Of a stretch of DNA of 44,390 nucleotides, positions 3,953 through 44,390 are shown in pieces; position 1 is the stretch's first letter, and every line of letters begins with the position of its first letter. The notes under the pieces are model-generated. The model ran no database searches and was not told where the DNA came from. It saw nothing but the letters and a program-made list of their open reading frames with translations. The stretch is from Escherichia phage 590B. The stretch is taken from the sequence record MW722821.1; one strand, given 5' to 3'. Made by a program: the position numbers and the translations under genes.

Positions 3953-4225
3953 ACTATTTATTTACGTATTCCAGTTATTCCTCCGAATTGTAAATGTTGG
4001 AATAAACTATTCGAATAGTTGACTTTTCACTAAAAATATGATAAGCTCCACCTGAGCTTGTGAAGTATGAACAAGCGACCGCGGCGCGGGCAGGTAACGG
4101 AGCGGGACGTAAGTCCTGAGTGTAGTTACGCTGACGCGTTCGGAAGGGCCATACCCTATTGCTTGTGTAAAAAGTAACTGGTTTACTGAGATTACGCCGT
4201 TTCTATGTTTAAATGATAAGGACTA

Positions 4226-4252
4226 GCGCCCCGCTTTATGGCGGGGCTTTAC
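4226..4252 (+). terminator. rho-independent terminator
   Basis: GCCCCGC-TTTATG-GCGGGGC then TTTACTT; 20 nt upstream of i-spanin start. Confidence 0.5.
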
Positions 4253-4271
4253 TTATCGAGAAAGGGGAAAC

Positions 4272-4658
4272 ATGAATCTTAAAGCAACTGTCGTAGCAGG
4301 AGCATGTTTCATCATCCTGGTTTACGCACACGGCATCTACCAGTATCGCAGCGGATGGAACGAAGGCCGGGCTAATCTCGTTTCGCAGCAACAGCAGAAA
4401 GCACAGGCTGAGTTAGCGAAGAAAACACAACGGCAGCAGCAGGATGAATCGAAGGCCGCCGCCGCTGACAACGAAGGCAAGACGAAATCAGAGGTGATTA
4501 CCCGTGAAGTCGTTAAGTACATTAAAACGCCTGGTCGCAGCGTGTGCACTTTTGACCCTGAGCGCGTGCAGCTCAAGTCCCGCGCCGTCGCCAACGCCAA
4601 TTCCATCTCCGGATACGACGATGATGCAGCCGCCGTGCAAGCTGGCGCCACCAAGTAG
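4272..4658 (+). CDS. i-spanin (Rz-like inner-membrane spanin)
   Basis: N-terminal transmembrane helix followed by Gln/Ala/Lys-rich coiled-coil; contains an overlapping +1-frame lipoprotein gene (classic Rz/Rz1 arrangement). Confidence 0.65.
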   Translation: MNLKATVVAGACFIILVYAHGIYQYRSGWNEGRANLVSQQQQKAQAELAKKTQRQQQDESKAAAADNEGKTKSEVITREVVKYIKTPGRSVCTFDPERVQLKSRAVANANSISGYDDDAAAVQAGATK

Positions 4659-4767
4659 TGACGCGGACGAGGATTTAGCTATCGACGTTCAGAACGCCGA
4701 ATGCGTACGGCAACTGAGACTGAAAGTGTTCATGTTGCAGGATTACGTGAGGAATATTCTGGAATAG
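4504..4767 (+). CDS. o-spanin (Rz1-like outer-membrane lipoprotein)
   Basis: GTG start with GAGGTG SD; signal peptide ending in lipobox LTLSAC; proline-rich mature region; +1 frame overlapping the i-spanin 3' half and extending past its stop. Confidence 0.65.
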   Translation: MKSLSTLKRLVAACALLTLSACSSSPAPSPTPIPSPDTTMMQPPCKLAPPSSDADEDLAIDVQNAECVRQLRLKVFMLQDYVRNILE

Positions 4768-4849
4768 TTGCCTTGCATGTTGGAATAATTTATTCTTGAC
4801 ATGTAAATCCGGGTGGCCCGGATTCCAACGTCCAGGGGACATACTGACT

Positions 4850-9948: not shown

Positions 9949-11115
9949 ATGGCTACAACTCCTTTTAAGGGCGCGAATACCGCGCAATTCTATGCGGCGG
10001 AAACTACCCCTGGCGTAACACCGACTAACCCGGTATGGTCGCCGTTGCGTAACACTGGCGGTGTTCCTGCCGTAACCCGCGATGCGCTGACTTCCAACGA
10101 ACTAGACGGCAGCCGTGAAACTACATCCATCCGAACCGGTAACAAACAGGTTAGCGGGGAGTACGCCATCGAACTTAGCTCTCGTAGCCAGGATGATTTC
10201 CTTGCGGGAGCGATGACTTCTACGTGGCAAGCTGGGGTAGAGATTACTGGCGCCGAAATTACGGTCGCCCCAGCAGGTAAAACATTCACCCGCGCTGCCG
10301 GTAGCTTCCTTACTGACGGTGTAGAAGTTGGCGACCTGATTGCGTTCACCGACTTAACCGGCGACAACGCAAAACCGTTTATCGTGACCGCGGTTTCCGC
10401 TCTGGTAGTTACGGGCGCAGGTATTCAGCACACGCTGACAGCAGAGACAGTAACCACTGACGCAAAAACTGGCGACAAGCTGGAAACCGGTAACGCGTGT
10501 AAGACGTTCTCCATCCTGACGTGGTTCAAGGGCCAGTGTGATAACCCGGACGCGTACATGCTGACCAAAGGTGTGGAAATCTCTGGCTTTACCGTAGAGC
10601 AGGCGGTTAACGCCATGGTCACCGGCAGCTTCCCGTTCATCGGCCTGAGTCAGGAGATTCTTACCGCGCCGCCGTCTGGCTCTGATTTCTCTCAGGTTAC
10701 GTTCACCGATGAGCCGTTCTCGTCGGTAGATGTGTCGGTGTTCGATGGCTCCACGCCGTTGCGTTGCGATACTCTCACCATCACCAACGACAACGGAGCT
10801 TCCGCGCAGTTCGAACTCGGTAACAGTAGCGTGGCGTTCGTCGAACGTGGACGCGCAGCTAACACATTCTCTATCTCTGGCAAGCTGTACGACATGGCGA
10901 TGATTCAGAAGTTTATCAACGAGCAGCAGGTAGAGATTAACTCTATTCTGGCGGGGGTAAACGGGGCTATGTCTTTCAGTTTGAAACGCGCAGAGCTTAC
11001 AGCAGTAACACCAGAGATTGGCGGACCCGAGTCAATCACTCAGTCCATTGAGGGGCAGGCCACCGGCAACCAGTACCAGTCGTCTATCGTAATTCAACGT
11101 ATCACCTACGCATAA
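9949..11115 (+). CDS. major tail protein
   Basis: 389-aa Thr/Gly/Ser-rich ORF; ATG 9949 with AAGAGG SD 8 nt upstream (track start 9943 is GTG); followed by strong terminator. Confidence 0.55.
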   Translation: MATTPFKGANTAQFYAAETTPGVTPTNPVWSPLRNTGGVPAVTRDALTSNELDGSRETTSIRTGNKQVSGEYAIELSSRSQDDFLAGAMTSTWQAGVEITGAEITVAPAGKTFTRAAGSFLTDGVEVGDLIAFTDLTGDNAKPFIVTAVSALVVTGAGIQHTLTAETVTTDAKTGDKLETGNACKTFSILTWFKGQCDNPDAYMLTKGVEISGFTVEQAVNAMVTGSFPFIGLSQEILTAPPSGSDFSQVTFTDEPFSSVDVSVFDGSTPLRCDTLTITNDNGASAQFELGNSSVAFVERGRAANTFSISGKLYDMAMIQKFINEQQVEINSILAGVNGAMSFSLKRAELTAVTPEIGGPESITQSIEGQATGNQYQSSIVIQRITYA

Positions 11116-11118
11116 AAC

Positions 11119-11147
11119 TAAGGCCCCTTTCGGGGCCTTTTTCTTAC
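11119..11147. terminator. rho-independent terminator (bidirectional) after major tail gene
   Basis: AAGGCCCC-TTTC-GGGGCCTT followed by TTTTTCTT; also closes the minus-strand cassette. Confidence 0.65.
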
Positions 11148-11374
11148 TCATCAATATTGCTTCGGTATTCCCGTAACTTCTCCAGACTTTCAATTGCTTC
11201 CGCTAAGTCGGTTCCGGTGTCCTTGTGTCCGCGCAAGCCCATGCACAATAGCTTCTTCAATGCGTGCTGTAGCGCCGGGTCGCGTATATCGAAGGCGCGG
11301 AGCACATCATAAACGTCTACTGTCATAGTGCTGCCATGAGTGTTTGTCATTGTGCGGTTGTATTTTGAAGTCAT
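11144..11374 (-). CDS. hypothetical protein (last gene of opposite-strand cassette)
   Basis: 76-aa ORF; ATG 11374 with GGGGAG SD; ends at the bidirectional terminator. Confidence 0.5.
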   Translation of the reverse strand: MTSKYNRTMTNTHGSTMTVDVYDVLRAFDIRDPALQHALKKLLCMGLRGHKDTGTDLAEAIESLEKLREYRSNIDE

Positions 11375-21476: not shown

Positions 21477-23657
21477 ATGTCAAGCGTATGCGGTGACGTT
21501 TTAAGCCTGGCGGATTTACAGACCGCCAAGAAGCACCAGATTTTTGAAGCTGAGGTTATTACTGGTAAATCCGGTGGTGTTGCTACTGGTGCTGATATTG
21601 ATTACGCAACAAATCAGGTTACAGGGCAGACGCAGAAGACACTCCCCGCCGTGTTGCGCGACGCCGGGTTCAGACCTGCGTCTTTCACATTCGAAACAGG
21701 TGGGACTTTGGGCGTTAACGACGCTGACCTGGCGGTGTTGTGGCCAGGGCCATCAGGCGACGGCAACTATTATGCATGGAAGGGTGCTCTGCCAAAAACC
21801 ATCCCGGCATCTTCAACCCCGGCGTCTACGGGCGGAGTAGGCCAGACCGCATGGGTTGCCGTTAGTGAAGCTGCATTGCGCCGTGATTTGGCCCTAAGCA
21901 CTGGCGCAGGGTTAGTTGGGACAACATCCGGCAGGACCGTACAGGCAGAGTTTGACTACCGCAAGACTCAAGCAGCAAAAACAGAGATAAACATACTTGA
22001 CTACCTTCCAGCTAACGTGATCGCAGCTCTAAACGATGTTAACGCGTCAAAAGCACTAGGAAGCGTAAGGACATACATTGAGCAGGCTTTAGCGGCAGCA
22101 ACTAGCGAGAATATCGGTACTGGGGTTACTTTACGTTTCCCGGCTGGGTTCTTTTGGCTTGATTCTACTCTTAACCTTCCAAAAAGGACGCGTATTGTTG
22201 GGGTCTACCCAGAAACATACTTTATGGCTCTCCCTGACTTTACTGGCACTAACGTAATTGCCGGTTCCACAGGACCCGCTATAGTCGCTATTGATAACAC
22301 AGGACAAGACCCGTTTTATATTGAAGGTTTCCAGATAAACGCAGATGGTTCCCAGCCGAATGTGGTTGGGCTGCACATTGGCGGCTGCCGTAATTCCGTC
22401 GTCCGTCGGATATCTGTATCTGGAACCTTCGATGCTGCTGTTGTTATCCACCCTAAAAACGCAACATCTGGAGACGTGGAGAACCTGGAATTAAGCCACG
22501 TATGGACATTAGGCGGTGGGCTTGTGCTCAGGACTAATACAGATATCGACCGTGGAAATTTAACAGGCCTGTCATTCCGGGATTGTATGTTTTTCAGCAC
22601 AATCGACAACAACCCTTCATGGGCGACATCTGGCAACCCTAGTATCAGGTTCTCCTGCCATGTAGACCGACAGATTTTTGCATGTACATTCGACCGTGTA
22701 GGATGGGCGAGTCGCGCAACATACGCCATCTATTCAGAAAGCCTAGCCGGAAATAGTGCATCTGATGTCAAGGGCTTCCGCGATATTCATTTTACAGATT
22801 TCCACGGAGAAGCCCACAATGCCGATGGGTCATTAACAGCGGACTGTACTTTTGCCCTTCTTGCGAATATGCGTAACAGTACATTTACTAATATCCAACG
22901 CTCCGGCGCTGTGACTCGCGGCGGCATTATCATGGATGGGTGCGAATACGTAACATTCAACTCAGTATCATTTGCGGACCCTAATATCACAACAGGAACA
23001 ACGACACCTTGTTGCGTATACCAGAACTCCACCAACAGATTTAATAGATTTATTAACTGTGACTTAACAGATGCAACCGGGAGCATGTTTGATTTAGCCG
23101 GTTGGACCGTGTCATCCAGTGTAATGTATTATTTTAAGGGTCTTTTTTGGGACGATAGTGGGACAAGTACCTGGGAGAGTGAACAAATGTCTTCAAAACC
23201 ATTTGTTCTTTTTAAAAGGTCTGCGCTTAACGCCAATAACGGTTCTGCTTACCCGCAGGAATCAGGCGTAACTATGGCTACTTCTGGTGATAATCTACAG
23301 GTTACCTTTGCACGAGACGTTACCACAAAAACATTCACAATACCAATCACAACTACAAACGCGGTTTTCAACAATCACGACCGCGTTTATGTTCTTTTCC
23401 GTCATCAATTTACCAGTTATGGGACAAATACTGTCGTAAAAATAGGACTAGGAACCTCATATGTGACTATATCACCACAGACCGGTATCGATTATTTTGC
23501 AGCCATCAGTCTTGCCAGAAGCCAGGCAACTAGTTTTAATATCCAAGTTACCTATAGCGGCGCATCTGCAGACTGCGGCATATTAATCAGAGATTTAGTA
23601 ATTTCTGACAGGATGCCGTGGGTGCCAAACTTCACCAAATCCTTACTTTGCGATTAA
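21477..23657 (+). CDS. tailspike / receptor-binding protein (putative depolymerase)
   Basis: 726-aa ORF with AAGAGGA SD; last gene of the structural arm, followed by terminator; Gly/Thr/Asn-rich repetitive C-terminal body; enzymatic specificity not determinable here. Confidence 0.55.
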   Translation: MSSVCGDVLSLADLQTAKKHQIFEAEVITGKSGGVATGADIDYATNQVTGQTQKTLPAVLRDAGFRPASFTFETGGTLGVNDADLAVLWPGPSGDGNYYAWKGALPKTIPASSTPASTGGVGQTAWVAVSEAALRRDLALSTGAGLVGTTSGRTVQAEFDYRKTQAAKTEINILDYLPANVIAALNDVNASKALGSVRTYIEQALAAATSENIGTGVTLRFPAGFFWLDSTLNLPKRTRIVGVYPETYFMALPDFTGTNVIAGSTGPAIVAIDNTGQDPFYIEGFQINADGSQPNVVGLHIGGCRNSVVRRISVSGTFDAAVVIHPKNATSGDVENLELSHVWTLGGGLVLRTNTDIDRGNLTGLSFRDCMFFSTIDNNPSWATSGNPSIRFSCHVDRQIFACTFDRVGWASRATYAIYSESLAGNSASDVKGFRDIHFTDFHGEAHNADGSLTADCTFALLANMRNSTFTNIQRSGAVTRGGIIMDGCEYVTFNSVSFADPNITTGTTTPCCVYQNSTNRFNRFINCDLTDATGSMFDLAGWTVSSSVMYYFKGLFWDDSGTSTWESEQMSSKPFVLFKRSALNANNGSAYPQESGVTMATSGDNLQVTFARDVTTKTFTIPITTTNAVFNNHDRVYVLFRHQFTSYGTNTVVKIGLGTSYVTISPQTGIDYFAAISLARSQATSFNIQVTYSGASADCGILIRDLVISDRMPWVPNFTKSLLCD

Positions 23658-23661
23658 AACT

Positions 23662-23686
23662 AAGGCCCCAAACGGGGCCTTTTCTC
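23662..23686. terminator. convergent terminator between the two genome arms
   Basis: AGGCCCC-AAAC-GGGGCCT then TTTTCTC; sits between the tailspike stop and the minus-strand arm. Confidence 0.6.
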
Positions 23687-23823
23687 TACTCTTCTGATAA
23701 CTTCTCCAGCACAAACGCCAGTTGCGCATTAGCGGCGTCTCTTTGCTGCCGTAGGCGTAGAACCTCCTCTTCGAGTTCCTTGATACGTTTTTGCAATGCT
23801 GGAATCGGGGCTATGATGTTCAT
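23686..23823 (-). CDS. hypothetical small coiled-coil protein
   Basis: 45-aa ORF below track cutoff; its ATG overlaps the helicase stop (ATGA); ends at the convergent terminator. Confidence 0.35.
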   Translation of the reverse strand: MNIIAPIPALQKRIKELEEEVLRLRQQRDAANAQLAFVLEKLSEE

Positions 23824-37112: not shown

Positions 37113-37141
37113 TTGCACACTAAGATAGAATAGGCTACTAT
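37113..37141 (+). promoter_or_regulatory. sigma70-type promoter (TTGCAC-N17-TACTAT), family A
   Basis: -35 37113-37118, -10 37136-37141; 32 nt upstream of ORF 37173. Confidence 0.55.
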
Positions 37142-37854: not shown

Positions 37855-38058
37855 ATGGTACAGAGATATTCTAAGTATGGGTCCGACAACCATTTCATTG
37901 ACCGCCACGGGAAGTGGGTTAAGTTTGAGGACTACCAGAATCTTGACCTAAAGCTGTTGGAAGTTGAAGCCGAGTTACAGAAATACAAGGACCAGTTCCT
38001 GGATTACGTCGAGTGCGCGAACTGTGGGTCAGTTACACATGTGGGAGGGGTGGAGTAA
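37855..38058 (+). CDS. hypothetical protein, MVQRY paralog 1
   Basis: 67 aa; N-terminus MVQRY and C-terminus ELQKYKDQ...YVECANCGSVTHVGGVE shared with next gene. Confidence 0.5.
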   Translation: MVQRYSKYGSDNHFIDRHGKWVKFEDYQNLDLKLLEVEAELQKYKDQFLDYVECANCGSVTHVGGVE

Positions 38059-38062
38059 TGGT
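37969..38062 (+). repeat. 94-bp direct repeat, copy 1 (3' end of MVQRY paralog 1)
   Basis: About 88% identical to 38238-38331, including the overlapping stop/start GGAGTAATGG vs GGAGTGATGG. Confidence 0.7.
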
Positions 38063-38327
38063 ACAGAGATATGAGGTAAAAGCGTGGGGCCTGCCAGAGC
38101 CTGAGATGGCTGAGTACGCATACGGCGATTATGTAGAGTACGACAGCTATAAGGAACTGGACGACTATTACCAGGAACGTCTAGCCGACGCCGACAAGGA
38201 AATAGAAGGGCTTGTGTCGAGACTGGCAGAAGTAAACGCCGAGCTACAGAAATACAAAGACCAGTACCCTGATTACGTCGAGTGCGCGAACTGCAGGTCA
38301 GTTACACATGTGGAGGGGGTGGAGTGA
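38058..38327 (+). CDS. hypothetical protein, MVQRY paralog 2
   Basis: 89 aa; same N- and C-terminal blocks as paralog 1; TAATG overlap. Confidence 0.5.
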   Translation: MVQRYEVKAWGLPEPEMAEYAYGDYVEYDSYKELDDYYQERLADADKEIEGLVSRLAEVNAELQKYKDQYPDYVECANCRSVTHVEGVE

Positions 38328-38331
38328 TGGT
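38238..38331 (+). repeat. 94-bp direct repeat, copy 2 (3' end of MVQRY paralog 2)
   Basis: See copy 1. Confidence 0.7.
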
Positions 38332-38578: not shown

Positions 38579-38855
38579 CATCCTGAAACGAAGCGGCCTT
38601 GCGCCGCTGTCACCGAGAGCGAAGACACGTATACACAAGCGTCGCCGTAACGTGCTGTACCCAGAGATACAAGAACGGCGTAAAGCTATCCGCGCCTGTG
38701 GATTCCAGAACGGAAAGGCCGTGAATCTCGGTGAGTTTAAAACAAAGGAACGCGCAGCTATCGCGAACCGGCTATTTAATTACTGGAAATCGCTGGGGTA
38801 CGATGATATTCCGACGAAACCACAGAGACGACAATACATCTGGAGACATAAATGA
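38562..38855 (+). CDS. hypothetical basic protein
   Basis: 97-aa ORF from ATG 38562 overlapping the end of paralog 3. Confidence 0.45.
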   Translation: MSLATDILKRSGLAPLSPRAKTRIHKRRRNVLYPEIQERRKAIRACGFQNGKAVNLGEFKTKERAAIANRLFNYWKSLGYDDIPTKPQRRQYIWRHK

Positions 38856-39292
38856 CTACTATCGCGTTTGACGGAAAGACAATGGCCTGTGATACCCGTG
38901 TTGTGTGCGGGAGTAACTGTTACAACACAGACACAAAGATATACGAGAACGAATTTGTTGTTATTGGGGCGGCTGGCGATGCAGGGGTTGGTATCCTTTT
39001 AGTGGAGGACGATAGTATTTTAGTGCCTAAGCACTACGATTTTGATTTCTCTGCCTTGGTGTGGGTTAAAGACATCGAAACGTTGTGTAGGGTGGAGTTC
39101 TATAAATCTTGGGATTGTGCTCTTAGTTTGGTTATTCAGATTGCGGACAGCTTTTCCGCCGTTGGTTCAGGCGCCCCTTATGCCCTAGCGGCTATGGAAT
39201 GTGGGTATTCGGCGCAAGGTGGTGTAGCAGTTGCATCGAAGTTCGACCCTGACACCGGCGGCAAGATTATTACCAAACAACTATTAGGATAA
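38852..39292 (+). CDS. HslV-like N-terminal nucleophile (proteasome beta-type) peptidase homolog
   Basis: N-terminus MTTIAFDG matches HslV MTTIVSV (Thr nucleophile after Met removal); VIGAAGDAG and AVGSGAPYALAAM parallel HslV AGFAGGTADAF and AIGSGGPYAQAAA; 146 aa; comparison from memory of E. coli HslV. Confidence 0.55.
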   Translation: MTTIAFDGKTMACDTRVVCGSNCYNTDTKIYENEFVVIGAAGDAGVGILLVEDDSILVPKHYDFDFSALVWVKDIETLCRVEFYKSWDCALSLVIQIADSFSAVGSGAPYALAAMECGYSAQGGVAVASKFDPDTGGKIITKQLLG

Positions 39293-39351
39293 TTCCTAAC
39301 CGTGCTATCCTCCAGTTACTGCATACTTAATACGCACCTGGAGGATTCATC

Positions 39352-39660
39352 TTGGATAAATTTACTGAAACAGTGACTGGGTGGCTTCTGGCAGCCGCAC
39401 TAGCTGGTGGGGTAATCGGACTACGACAACATAAGTCCGCTATTTCCGGCCCTATCGACGGATTCTGCTTTATTGCAACTGGCTTCACTTGCGCCGTATT
39501 TGGCGCGCCTCTCGCCGCTCAATGGTTCGGTATTACCGGAGAGCGCGAGATAGCTGGCCTCGGATTCATCATCGCAATTCTCTGGATGCCCATCTATTCC
39601 CGTCTCTCCGGTATCGTCGCCGGAGAATACATCGCACGTCGAGGAGGCACAGATGAATGA
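39352..39660 (+). CDS. holin (putative)
   Basis: 102-aa protein with about three hydrophobic helices directly upstream of the endolysin; TTG start 6 nt after GGAGGA. Confidence 0.5.
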   Translation: MDKFTETVTGWLLAAALAGGVIGLRQHKSAISGPIDGFCFIATGFTCAVFGAPLAAQWFGITGEREIAGLGFIIAILWMPIYSRLSGIVAGEYIARRGGTDE

Positions 39661-39925
39661 ATTATTCTGGTTCGGCGGTATGCTGGCAATCGGAGGCACA
39701 TCGCTGTTTAATGTATATCACCCCAGCGTGGATGACGGGCTATTCGGGCGTGTGCTCTATATCCTGACTGCTATTGTCTGCGCCGCCGGATGTATTCACC
39801 TGTTGCAGGGCAGCATGTCACCAACGCTGCCTGAGACGTTAATTACATTAGTTGCGCTGCGTCAGATTCGCCAGGCGTGGCTGTCGTACGGAGGACATAA
39901 GCGTGTCTCGAAACATTTCAGATAA
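39653..39925 (+). CDS. second membrane protein of lysis cassette (holin/antiholin-like)
   Basis: 90 aa with two hydrophobic helices; GAGGAGG SD; overlaps holin stop and endolysin start. Confidence 0.45.
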   Translation: MNELFWFGGMLAIGGTSLFNVYHPSVDDGLFGRVLYILTAIVCAAGCIHLLQGSMSPTLPETLITLVALRQIRQAWLSYGGHKRVSKHFR

Positions 39926-40391
39926 TGGGTTGCATTTCACTGCCGCGTTCGAGGGGTTCCGCGGAACTGCGTATCGCGCTACGCCAAATGAGAAGTACCT
40001 GACTATTGGGTACGGTCATTATGGGCCAGACGTAACGCCAGGCAAGACCATCACCCCGGGACAAGGCCTCCTGTTACTGAATCGTGATATGGCTAAGGCC
40101 GTAGCTGCGGTTGACGCAGCGGCACACCATTCATTGACACAGGCACAGTTCGATGCAGTGTGCGACCTGGTATACAACGCAGGTGCTGGTGTGATTGCTG
40201 CTACTACCGGCACGGGTAAGGCACTGCGTTCTGGTGATATTGCAACGCTGCGGGCTAAGCTGACACTGTTCATCAACCAGAACGGCAGACCGTTACTTGG
40301 TCTGCGCCGCCGTACTGCCGGTCGTCTGGCGCTGTTCGACGGTAAACCGTGGCAAGAGGCAGAGGCTATCGGGCGCGCGGTGAAAGGTTGA
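39903..40391 (+). CDS. endolysin, lysozyme-like (GH24-type)
   Basis: FEGFRGTAYR...LTIGYGH matches the lysozyme/lambda R-type N-terminal signature; GTG start at 39903 with GGAGGA 7 nt upstream (no in-frame ATG near N-terminus). Confidence 0.65.
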   Translation: MSRNISDNGLHFTAAFEGFRGTAYRATPNEKYLTIGYGHYGPDVTPGKTITPGQGLLLLNRDMAKAVAAVDAAAHHSLTQAQFDAVCDLVYNAGAGVIAATTGTGKALRSGDIATLRAKLTLFINQNGRPLLGLRRRTAGRLALFDGKPWQEAEAIGRAVKG

Positions 40392-40456
40392 CACCTGAGA
40401 CTAATCCGACGATACTTAAATCACCTCCTGTTCCATACCTCTGCTCTCCAGTTTTA

Positions 40457-40488
40457 TCCCGGCCCTGACCCAGCCGGGATTTTTTTTA
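40457..40488 (+). terminator. rho-independent terminator after endolysin
   Basis: TCCCGGC-loop-GCCGGGA followed by a 9-T run. Confidence 0.7.
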
Positions 40489-40509
40489 TCTATTTTCTAC
40501 GATGACTAG

Positions 40510-40538
40510 TTGACTATTACCGTAGACCCTATTATATT
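40510..40538 (+). promoter_or_regulatory. sigma70-type promoter (TTGACT-N17-TATATT)
   Basis: Immediately after terminator 40457-40488 and 37 nt upstream of ORF 40575. Confidence 0.5.
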
Positions 40539-43180: not shown

Positions 43181-44390
43181 TATCACGGCAACGGAGCCGC
43201 AAGGCGCGTTTCTCGGTATGCATTGCAAGTTTCCGGCATTCGTAGCTGGCTTCGGTACGGGTAAATCCGAAGTTATGTGCAACTCTGCACTACTCGACAG
43301 CATGGAAGGTGGTAGCGATTCTATCATCGCCATGTATGAGCCGACTTATGACCTGGTGCGCCTCATCCTTGCACCGCGTATGGAAGAAAAGCTCACCGAC
43401 TGGGGTATCCGGTACAAATACAACAAGTCTGACAACATAATCTATACGTCTTCCGGACAATTTGGGGATTTTGTTCTGCGTACACTTGATAATCCAGCAC
43501 GAATCGTTGGCTACGAATCGTTTCGTGCGAAAATCGACGAGTTGGACACCCTTAACATGGAGCACGCCGAGCACGCGTGGAACAAAGTCATCGCCCGTAA
43601 CCGCCAGTTGCCGCGGACATATAAACCTATTACACCGAAACCTGCTAATACCGTTTCCGTGTTCACTACCCCGGAAGGATTCCGTTTCGTACATGACCGC
43701 TGGGTAGTCAAAAAGAATCCAGGCTACGAGATGATTCAGGCGTCCACCCTGTCTAACCCGTTCCTGCCAGAAGATTATGTGCAGTCGTTACGCGACACAT
43801 ACCCAGGTCAGTTGATTGACGCCTACATCAACGGCGAGTTCGTCAACCTGACGGCGGGGACTGTCTATTACGCCTATGACCGCAGGAAAAACAGCAGCCG
43901 CGAAACAATAAAACCAGGCGAGACTCTGTATATCGGGCAGGACTTTAACGTAGGCCACATGGCTAGTACAGTTTACGTGCAACGTGGCAAAGTCTGGCAT
44001 GCAGTCGCCGAGTTGGTGGATATGTTCGATACGCCCGATGTGGTGAGAGCCGTAACAGAGCGCTGGAAAAGTAAGGGCCACTATATCGTTATGTACCCCG
44101 ACGCAAGCGGTAAAAACCGTAAAAGTAACAACGCCAGCACATCTGATATTGCCCAGTTACAGCAGGCCGGCTTCGAAGTGCGCGCTAAATCGACAAACCC
44201 ACCGGTTAAAGACCGCGTAGCGGCGATGAATAAGGCGCTTGAATCTGGTATGGTCATGATTAATGAGCAGGCTTGCCCGGTTACCGCACGATGCCTGGAG
44301 CAACAGGCTTACGACAAGAACGGCGAACCGGATAAATCAGGCGGTGTGGACCACCAGAATGATGGAACCACATACCCTATCGCGTATGAA
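43170..44390 (+). CDS. terL: terminase large subunit (3' end truncated by window; continues as 1-595)
   Basis: GTG 43170 with AAGGTGG SD, overlapping terS stop; Walker A-like GFGTGKS; reading frame runs to window end. Confidence 0.7.
   Translation, partial: MNVNITATEPQGAFLGMHCKFPAFVAGFGTGKSEVMCNSALLDSMEGGSDSIIAMYEPTYDLVRLILAPRMEEKLTDWGIRYKYNKSDNIIYTSSGQFGDFVLRTLDNPARIVGYESFRAKIDELDTLNMEHAEHAWNKVIARNRQLPRTYKPITPKPANTVSVFTTPEGFRFVHDRWVVKKNPGYEMIQASTLSNPFLPEDYVQSLRDTYPGQLIDAYINGEFVNLTAGTVYYAYDRRKNSSRETIKPGETLYIGQDFNVGHMASTVYVQRGKVWHAVAELVDMFDTPDVVRAVTERWKSKGHYIVMYPDASGKNRKSNNASTSDIAQLQQAGFEVRAKSTNPPVKDRVAAMNKALESGMVMINEQACPVTARCLEQQAYDKNGEPDKSGGVDHQNDGTTYPIAYE
43847..44390. repeat. 544-bp terminal direct repeat (exact copy of 1-544)
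   Basis: See partner repeat. Confidence 0.85.

Follow-up and report, generated by a model that had tools for sequence, protein, structure and literature searches.

In the window analyzed here, which is the whole 44,390-nucleotide stretch from Escherichia phage 590B (MW722821.1), the Shine-Dalgarno (SD) sequence of the first holin gene of the lysis cassette (holin 1) lies in the 3' arm of a 9-bp hairpin. Judged from its sequence, its predicted folding and its relatives, this hairpin over the holin SD is a genuine cis-regulatory element and is conserved. The explanation that we consider best as a whole, and put forward tentatively, is that the hairpin would mask the SD on transcripts reading in from upstream, and that a promoter nested within it would provide the holin mRNA. 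The lysis region matches that of the Kagunavirus coliphages (K1G-like, Guernseyvirinae), the nearest relative being Escherichia phage GertrudWoker_Bas73 (Bas73), with 95% identity over positions 39200-40500.

Structure and conservation of the hairpin

The hairpin and the genes on either side of it are organized as follows:

38852-39292, + strand: HslV-family peptidase gene, the upstream neighbor of the hairpin (PHROG 1040, E = 1.2e-33)
39307-39315, + strand: 5' arm of the hairpin, ATCCTCCAG, similar to the anti-SD sequence (sequence and folding)
39316-39337, + strand: loop of the hairpin, 22 nt, A/U-rich (sequence and folding)
39338-39346, + strand: 3' arm of the hairpin, CTGGAGGAT, which contains the holin SD (sequence and folding)
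39352-39660, + strand: holin 1, 102 aa, TTG start (PHROG 2359, E = 9e-30)

The stop codon of the peptidase gene (TAA, 39290-39292) is located 14 nt from the 5' arm. A first-pass annotation of this DNA had pointed out a perfect 9-bp inverted repeat with the holin GGAGGA in its 3' arm, and the coordinates that it gave proved exact. The stem contains five G-C pairs, and its arms are separated by 22 nt. The GGAGGA motif occupies 39340-39345 inside the 3' arm and is followed by a 6-nt spacer and the TTG at 39352. That the SD would be paired into a stem, as the same annotation had proposed, agrees with the predicted folding: the isolated hairpin has a free energy of -14.2 kcal/mol, and, across contexts of 53 to 660 nt, each of the nine stem pairs has a probability of 0.85-1.0. 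The folding z-scores are -3.35 and -3.79. The bare repeat is not beyond chance, as 10 perfect 9-bp repeats (loop of at most 30 nt) are present in the genome, compared to 5.4 ± 2.8 in shuffled sequences.

In Bas73, which has the same leader, the ribosome-binding region of the holin is the third costliest to open among 81 annotated genes (15.0 kcal/mol, against a mean of 6.8 and a standard deviation of 3.1). With a short 3' context, opening of the SD costs 12-14 kcal/mol on transcripts that read in from upstream, but only 2.6-2.8 kcal/mol on transcripts that begin at 39318. Two additional structures, an outer helix (GUG 39302-39304 with CAU 39348-39350) and a small hairpin across the upstream stop codon (39284-39299), were discarded, neither being conserved in relatives. 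A genome search for the complement of the leader and loop, as a trans-acting partner, gave nothing above chance, and an Rfam scan of the whole window returned 0 matches.

Conservation within Kagunavirus was assessed on a diversity set of 40 distinct sequences. The diversity of the 59-nt intergenic region is 0.031, against 0.35 at the third codon positions of the holin gene and 0.42 at those of the upstream gene. The two arms have values of 0.006 (5') and 0.0 (3'), and the loop one of 0.023. The hairpin is about ten times more conserved than the adjacent synonymous sites, and similarity among relatives falls sharply upstream of ~39282.

Within Kagunavirus, three arm changes are G.U-compatible, one change gives an A.C mismatch, and two loop variants extend the stem. 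In L039, an A>G change in the 5' arm keeps the pairing as G.U. In L116, a 67%-identical lineage, two changes in the 5' arm (C>T and A>G) are both kept as wobble pairs on the sense RNA only. Changes in the loops of L025 and LSPA1 lengthen the stem to 10 and 13 bp, respectively. Since the wobble pairing is specific to the sense RNA, these few events speak more for an RNA structure on the + strand than for a DNA palindrome.

Related hairpins in sister lineages and a candidate nested promoter

Hairpins are found at the same site in Jerseyvirus, Dhillonvirus, the KW1E-like group and the lineages L111, L116, L118 and L120. Their arms differ, and SD-like purines are always located in the 3' arm, 5-11 nt before the homologous start codon:

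This window (Kagunavirus): arms ATCCTCCAG / CTGGAGGAT, tail TCATC, start TTG
Jerseyvirus SETP3: arms AATCTCCGAAGGT / ACTTTCGGAGATT, tail TTTTATT, start GTG
Jersey-like L111 group: arms CTCCGTATGG / CTATACGGAG, no T-run, start ATG
L118 and L120: arms GCCCCCGA / TCGGGGGT, tail not T-rich in L118 and CCTTTTTG in L120, start ATG
Dhillonvirus EP23: arms AGTCCCAGTGAG / CTTACTGGGACT, tail TTTTT, start ATG
KW1E_UTAR: arms TCCCCGGA / TTCGGGGA, tail T8, start ATG

The folds of SETP3, skrot, LSPA1, EP23 and KW1E have z-scores from -3.9 to -6.7. The hairpins of SETP3, EP23 and KW1E are terminators that occupy the equivalent site, 5-8 nt before the M/V/L-D-(D)-K start, and have SD-like purines in their 3' arm. 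A -10-like hexamer overlaps the 5' arm in Jerseyvirus and Dhillonvirus, and the holin and endolysin families of all these phages are those of the window. The sister hairpins have stems of 8-13 bp, loops of 6-7 nt and T5-T8 tracts, whereas in the window a 9-bp stem encloses a loop of 22 nt and is followed by the tail TCATC; the SD (GGAGGA) is stronger there, and the start codon is TTG. A terminator scan called the EP23 and KW1E hairpins but not that of the window. In the classical terminator discriminant (d'Aubenton-Carafa 1990), EP23 scores +34 and KW1E +38, and two terminators of the window itself +7 and +35, whereas the window hairpin scores -32 and that of LSPA1 -16. The loop of 22 nt lies outside the 3-8 nt of intrinsic terminators, and the tail TCATCTTGG falls short of a T-run (tail score T = 2.76).

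Because the hairpins at the equivalent position in the sister genera are canonical intrinsic terminators, the window element is, as far as the comparison of sequences can tell, a relative of terminators in which the T-tract has been lost and a large loop, a strong SD and a TTG start have been acquired. The more distant homologues of FelixO1-like phages (L117, L119) and of L123 do not have a sequestered SD, so the architecture is confined to Guernseyvirinae, Dhillonvirus and the KW1E-like group. A scan of metagenomes retrieved the same genera only, with the exception of one distant contig (L098). The lineage L116 (metagenome contig, positions 1430-1812, holin 67% identical) has a single holin gene with a TTG start and arms of the Kagunavirus type. 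It is an intermediate lineage, in which a 9-nt loop and a TTTATTTT tail retain terminator features that the window has lost.

Across the 5' arm, a promoter-like motif can be recognized:

39303-39311, + strand: extended -10-like motif TGcTATCCT (cross-lineage comparison)
39284-39289, + strand: putative weak -35-like hexamer TTAGGA, TTAAGA in many relatives (read from the sequence)

TTAGGA and TATCCT are spaced by 16 nt. Transcription is predicted to start at about 39317-39319, 6-8 nt past the motif and just beyond the 5' arm. The motif was compared in 14 sequences from ~7 lineages, with the hexamer as anchor. All 14 share T(-12), A(-11) and T(-7), and 13 of them have G(-14); the "n" position, hexamer positions 3-5 and the flanks vary. 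The TG is seen in Kagunavirus, Jerseyvirus and Dhillonvirus lineages, and within Kagunavirus the polymorphic sites are the "n" position and the spacer. The pattern GnTAnnnT has a background of 0.004 per position in this genome, which corresponds to a chance of 0.036 within nine positions. Since the overlap between hexamer and stem differs by lineage (0, 3 or 5 nt), pairing does not explain the conservation of the hexamer.

A hexamer beginning with TT is found 16-18 nt upstream in most lineages, and in KW1E a TTGACC-17-TACTAT ends exactly at the stem start. The window has both the TG at -15/-14 and the TAnnnT of an extended -10 promoter, but not a recognizable -35 hexamer or an overall match at consensus level. 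Extended -10 promoters can function without a -35 element. A promoter downstream of the hairpin would have no room in three lineages, because a strong terminator abuts the start codon. The conserved block begins ~20 nt upstream of the TG, as expected of a self-contained cassette. The loop would be the leader of the nested-promoter transcript, which would explain both its conservation and this ~20-nt upstream boundary of similarity. Taken together, the nested promoter is a plausible source of translatable holin mRNA.

Explanations of the hairpin and comparison with known systems

The transcripts that reach the lysis cassette can be traced to the following candidate promoter:

37113-37141, + strand: sigma70-type promoter TTGCAC-17-TACTAT, overlapped by the palindrome GAATAGGCTACTATTC (consensus only)

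It is the nearest one upstream on the lysis strand and the likely source of transcripts reading into the cassette. None was called by the tool between 37.1 kb and the holin. A search of the + strand from this promoter to 39300 gave no convincing terminator. Read-in transcription is therefore expected, and a device that blocks the holin makes biological sense. In the explanation favored here, the hairpin would form on these transcripts of the upstream operon as they extend into the cassette. Its 5' arm (AUCCUCCAG) would mimic an anti-SD, pair with the SD of holin 1 and make initiation inefficient. The element would be the local version of the family hairpin in which, with a degenerate T-tract and a loop of 22 nt, SD masking is probably the remaining effect. 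The holin mRNA proper would arise from the weak extended -10 promoter in the 5' half of the hairpin, with a start that we infer to lie at ~39318. Such transcripts would be devoid of the anti-SD arm and have a free SD; in the sister genera, they would escape termination. The TTG start would then keep translation low, resulting in slow accumulation of the holin.

Blocking of holin expression from read-in transcripts is the most likely role of the hairpin; both this repression in vivo and the firing of the nested promoter are proposed from the sequence. It is also possible, although we regard it with some doubt, that a single element of 45 bp has three jobs. As DNA it would carry the -10; as RNA, on upstream transcripts only, its 5' arm would be an anti-SD by which these are silenced (or, in the sister genera, terminated); and holin 1 could be made only from transcripts born inside the hairpin, so that the origin of a transcript would determine its translation. 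In evolution, the family would then have switched the means of blocking read-through between termination (Jerseyvirus, Dhillonvirus) and translational masking (this Kagunavirus).

Several observations weigh against the combination of SD masking and a nested promoter. With a longer 3' context, alternative pairings lower the opening cost on read-in transcripts to 4-9 kcal/mol, and the short transcripts cost 3-5 kcal/mol for the SD core and up to 8 kcal/mol for the whole SD-to-start stretch. The estimate of SD accessibility depends on context because codons 9-14 of holin 1 (39377-39392, CUGGGUGGCUUCUGGC) give alternative conformers: when more context is folded, they can pair with either the SD region or the 5' arm. 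As codons 11-14 can also pair with the SD, the gap between read-in and short transcripts narrows. When ribosome-binding regions are ranked with naive ORF starts in the window, the holin is only 12th of 58; this ranking is diluted by false internal starts, and the annotated gene set of Bas73 was used for that reason. The metagenome variant L080 has a T>C change in a partner base of the 3' arm, resulting in an A.C mismatch. Across genera, RNAalifold on a MAFFT alignment gave 0 pairs, as the arms are not alignable column by column, and cross-genus structure was consequently judged by per-lineage folds. The hexamers of the window are weak, with four of six matches at -10 and three of six at -35, and a consensus promoter scan made no call at 39284-39311. 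The stem takes in five of the six hexamer bases in Kagunavirus and Jerseyvirus, so that their conservation could partly reflect pairing. Finally, searches of the literature for Kagunavirus, Jerseyvirus and Dhillonvirus turned up no mapped transcription starts, transcript 3' ends, transcriptomes or other expression data.

The first-pass annotation had read the hairpin as a plausible translational timer for lysis. A stable, conserved hairpin with the SD inside is in agreement with this idea. The positional homology to intrinsic terminators, the -10-like motif over the 5' arm and a cost of SD exposure that ranges from 4 to 14 kcal/mol by context limit the support for it, and a pure translational timer is not the sole reading and perhaps not the ancestral one. 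Its closest form would be a constitutive throttle, in which the hairpin on every polycistronic molecule, together with the TTG, lowers initiation at holin 1 and delays the trigger, without any nested promoter. This we consider rather unlikely, even though the hairpin is stable and conserved with the SD in its 3' arm, the TTG is invariant in ~60 relatives, and no promoter is called by the tool from 37.1 kb to the holin. In lambda, moreover, an upstream stem-loop governs access to the SD of the S gene (bioRxiv 10.1101/2025.05.14.654169), and the 22-nt A/U-rich loop could act as a ribosome standby site. However, with -14 to -21 kcal/mol over the SD, and efficient terminators in the sister genera, very little holin would be made unless the hairpin is relieved. 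A throttle also leaves unexplained the invariant T(-12), A(-11) and T(-7) and the near-invariant G(-14), the near-consensus promoter abutting the KW1E hairpin and the conserved loop sequence.

Kinship with terminators raises the alternative of a leaky intrinsic terminator or attenuator, which would stop most upstream transcription and leave the lysis genes to be expressed from the read-through fraction. The positional homologues in SETP3, EP23 and KW1E are canonical terminators, L116 combines Kagunavirus-type arms with the tail TTTATTTT, the tail of the window (TTCATCTT) has T at five of eight positions, and a second terminator lies just upstream of the spanin genes. The 22-nt loop and interrupted T-tract nevertheless make this unlikely, as does a discriminant of -32 against +7 to +38 for real terminators scored alike; the scan made no call here, and ARNold called no terminator at this place in Golestan, a near-identical phage (PMC7203180, Table S5). 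Improbable is the view that the hairpin has no regulatory role, being a decaying terminator relic or a chance match to the purine-rich SD, conserved through recent recombinational spread of one cassette. In its favor, chance alone would give about five perfect 9-bp repeats in this genome, and the cassette, with its sharp upstream edge, has the behavior of a mosaic module. Yet the holin protein has diverged by up to ~20%, with 0.35 at third positions against 0.031 in the 59-nt intergenic region, and the stem is kept or lengthened in divergent lineages. Least probable is a DNA palindrome acting as operator for a dimeric regulator in place of an RNA structure. Its perfect half-sites have centers 31 bp apart, about three helical turns, and the phage does have palindromic motifs at its promoters. 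Against it, the L039 and L116 variants break the DNA symmetry and keep G.U on the sense RNA, arm sequences are wholly different between genera with complementarity kept, and the motif is unrelated to the TAATAGnnnnCTATTC palindrome of the phage.

In phage lambda, a stem-loop 5' of the S holin gene controls ribosome access to the SD, and the rate of holin translation sets the lysis time (bioRxiv 10.1101/2025.05.14.654169). The window hairpin resembles this structure (sdi) as a short stem-loop immediately 5' of a holin gene, over access to its SD. The holins themselves are not homologous, those of the window belonging to other families (PHROG 2359 and 2508, without a Pfam match), and the window stem is longer, more stable and homologous to terminators. 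In lambda, initiation is split between Met1 and Met3 to give antiholin and holin. Holin 1 does not have such a dual-start motif: its N-terminus is M(TTG)-D-K-F-T-E-T-V, and the next in-frame start is a GTG at codon 8 without SD. Because of the unrelated holin and the single start, the window hairpin is an analogue of the lambda S system, not a member.

Lambda also has the terminator tR' between the late promoter pR' and the lysis genes S, R and Rz, for which the antiterminator Q is needed. Here, too, a terminator-like element stands between promoter and lysis cassette, and expression would depend on passing it. However, tR' is far upstream of the S ribosome-binding region, whereas the window hairpin includes the SD. 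A Q-like antiterminator, which would place the terminator-like hairpins under regulation, was sought by PHROG scans of ten small ORFs; these matched only families of unknown function, and no Q-like protein emerged. The E. coli galP1 promoter is an extended -10 promoter (TGcTATGGT). The window motif (TGcTATCCT) similarly has a TGn followed by TAnnnT and a poor -35; unlike galP1, this putative promoter overlaps the template of an RNA hairpin arm.

Promoter-coupled terminators, in which one short DNA stretch serves termination and initiation of adjacent units, have recently been described (Fletcher et al., bioRxiv 10.64898/2026.08.19.745784). In these, the -10 lies just downstream of the T-tract, the DNA of the stem-loop serves as -35, and the transcript ends ~10 bp upstream of the next start (bioRxiv 10.64898/2026.08.19.745784). 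That layout does not suit the window, where the start codon directly follows the hairpin; the -10 is upstream of the stem and the predicted start inside the hairpin. The nested-promoter arrangement, if confirmed, would thus differ from promoter-coupled terminators. It would insulate a toxic gene from read-through yet still express it.

The hairpin itself is real, and as a brake on lysis it would be fairly ordinary, a known kind of control. The holin level sets the time of host lysis. Kagunavirus phages have been isolated many times as candidates for therapy against K1 and uropathogenic E. coli, and their engineering would benefit from a defined point at which the timing of lysis is controlled.

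Lysis genes, start codons and neighboring features

Besides holin 1, the lysis genes are the following:

39653-39925, + strand: holin 2, the second membrane protein of a holin family, 90 aa, starting at ATG behind a GGAGG of its own (PHROG 2508, E = 1.9e-33)
39903-40391, + strand: soluble endolysin (GH24, T4-lysozyme-type), GTG start (PF00959, E = 8e-27)
4272-4658, + strand: i-spanin (Rz-like), 128 aa (PHROG 2536, E = 2e-56)
4504-4767, + strand: o-spanin (Rz1-like), 87 aa, GTG start, SD GAGGTGAT (PHROG 1267 and 5672)

Hydropathy analysis shows three hydrophobic stretches in holin 1, and the gene of holin 2 overlaps its 3' end by 8 nt. Holins of PHROG 2359 and 2508 have one to three hydrophobic stretches and are encoded next to a muralytic enzyme; a Pfam search of both holins gave no match. 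As in the holin-endolysin-spanin sets for Gram-negative hosts, the membrane holins stand beside the muralytic enzyme. In the endolysin, hydropathy reveals no hydrophobic stretch and no signal-anchor segment. The i-spanin has an N-terminal membrane segment (hydrophobic at residues 1-24, by hydropathy). The o-spanin gene overlaps that of the i-spanin in another frame, runs beyond its stop and encodes MKSLSTLKRLVAACALLTLSAC, with a signal peptide and the lipobox LSAC. The pair is of the overlapped two-component (Rz/Rz1) type.

The spanin genes are flanked by a Hoc-like head decoration gene and by the scaffold and major capsid genes. The window wraps around, with positions 1-544 recurring exactly at 43847-44390. 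Because the first 544 bases are duplicated at its end, the genome measures 43,846 bp, and genes near the window ends, such as the large terminase, cross the junction. From the end of the endolysin gene to the start of the spanins the distance is 7,727 bp (43,846 - 40,391 + 4,272). This confirms the earlier suggestion of two lysis loci ~7.7 kb apart with the spanins among head genes. The split loci and the TTG holin start are not new, as both are already present in the annotations of the Kagunavirus phages Golestan and JSSK01 (PMC7203180; PMC11641727).

Start codons and leaders were read in ~60 relatives (40 viral loci and ~21 metagenome contigs). The TTG start of holin 1, which the first-pass annotation had also predicted, holds: the TTG at 39352 is the first possible start of the ORF and is invariant in all of them. 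The homologous start (motif M/V/L-D-(D)-K) is an ATG in Dhillonvirus (M-D-K) and a GTG in Jerseyvirus (V-D-D-K). The GTG start proposed for the endolysin likewise withstood comparison. The GTG and its GGAGG (within GGAGGA, 39890-39895) are invariant among sequences with the same gene arrangement. The Jerseyvirus homologue has an ATG at the equivalent place (MSNRNIS...), and a minority with an inserted gene starts at an ATG one codon later (MRNIS...). The TTG downstream of the GTG is CTG in several relatives. PDB 8hp8 ("Endolysin mtEC340M") matches the endolysin end to end (E = 5e-97), and its N-terminus, VSRNIS, is the same as that of the endolysin read from the GTG.

The endolysin start is annotated inconsistently across relatives, as TTG in Golestan and as GTG or ATG elsewhere. 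The Golestan annotation takes the downstream TTG, giving a protein of 152 aa (PMC7203180). A small extra ORF is present between holin 2 and the endolysin in Bas73 and three viral contigs (positions 2074-2178 of L041). For the o-spanin, the GTG at 4504 is the sole possible start and is kept in Bas73, in which the gene is annotated as a 47-aa, ATG-initiated C-terminal fragment without the lipobox. Non-ATG starts are used by three of the five lysis genes, compared to five of 76 other genes in Bas73 (Fisher p = 0.006). Annotations can be corrected to a TTG start for the holin, GTG 39903 instead of Golestan's downstream TTG for the endolysin, and GTG 4504, giving 87 aa, for the o-spanin.

Additional promoters and terminators were located around the two lysis loci:

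40458-40487, + strand: intrinsic terminator CCCGGC-9 nt-GCCGGG followed by A and T8, which closes the lysis cassette (sequence, scan and folding)
40510-40538, + strand: next promoter, TTGACT-17-TATATT (sequence and scan)
4228-4247, + strand: intrinsic terminator, 25 nt upstream of the i-spanin ATG (sequence, scan and folding)

The promoter and terminator predictions published for Golestan do not list a hairpin of the window type (PMC7203180). A promoter-like match on the - strand (39689-39661) looks like chance, with 7 matches against 5.4 expected. The palindrome TAATAGnnnnCTATTC gave 22 strand-hits, compared to 3.0 expected, with sites at 2119, 3922, 13404, 26258, 29951, 32251, 32295, 35894, 37128 and 40504. 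At about ten sites, it overlaps sigma70-like promoters (TTGCAC-17-TACTAT or TTGACA-17-TATAGT). Its sites correspond to the published PHIRE "promoters" of Golestan, and its symmetry suggests an operator for a phage regulator.

The spanin module (3994-4802) resembles an insert complete in itself: copies of the 12-mer ATGTTGGAATAA are located at 3994 and 4777, and a TTGAC hexamer follows each of them. At 4021, a promoter-like TTGACT precedes a leader of ~200 nt that ends in the strong terminator at 4228-4247, an arrangement that recalls the pR'-tR' leader of lambda. In the small-gene region upstream of the lysis cassette, a 103-nt direct repeat with 87% identity is present (37960-38062 and 38229-38331). 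Two 40-nt GGCCCC...GGGGCC hairpin terminators with 83% identity (11113-11152 and 23655-23694) lie where + and - gene blocks meet, and are probably bidirectional.

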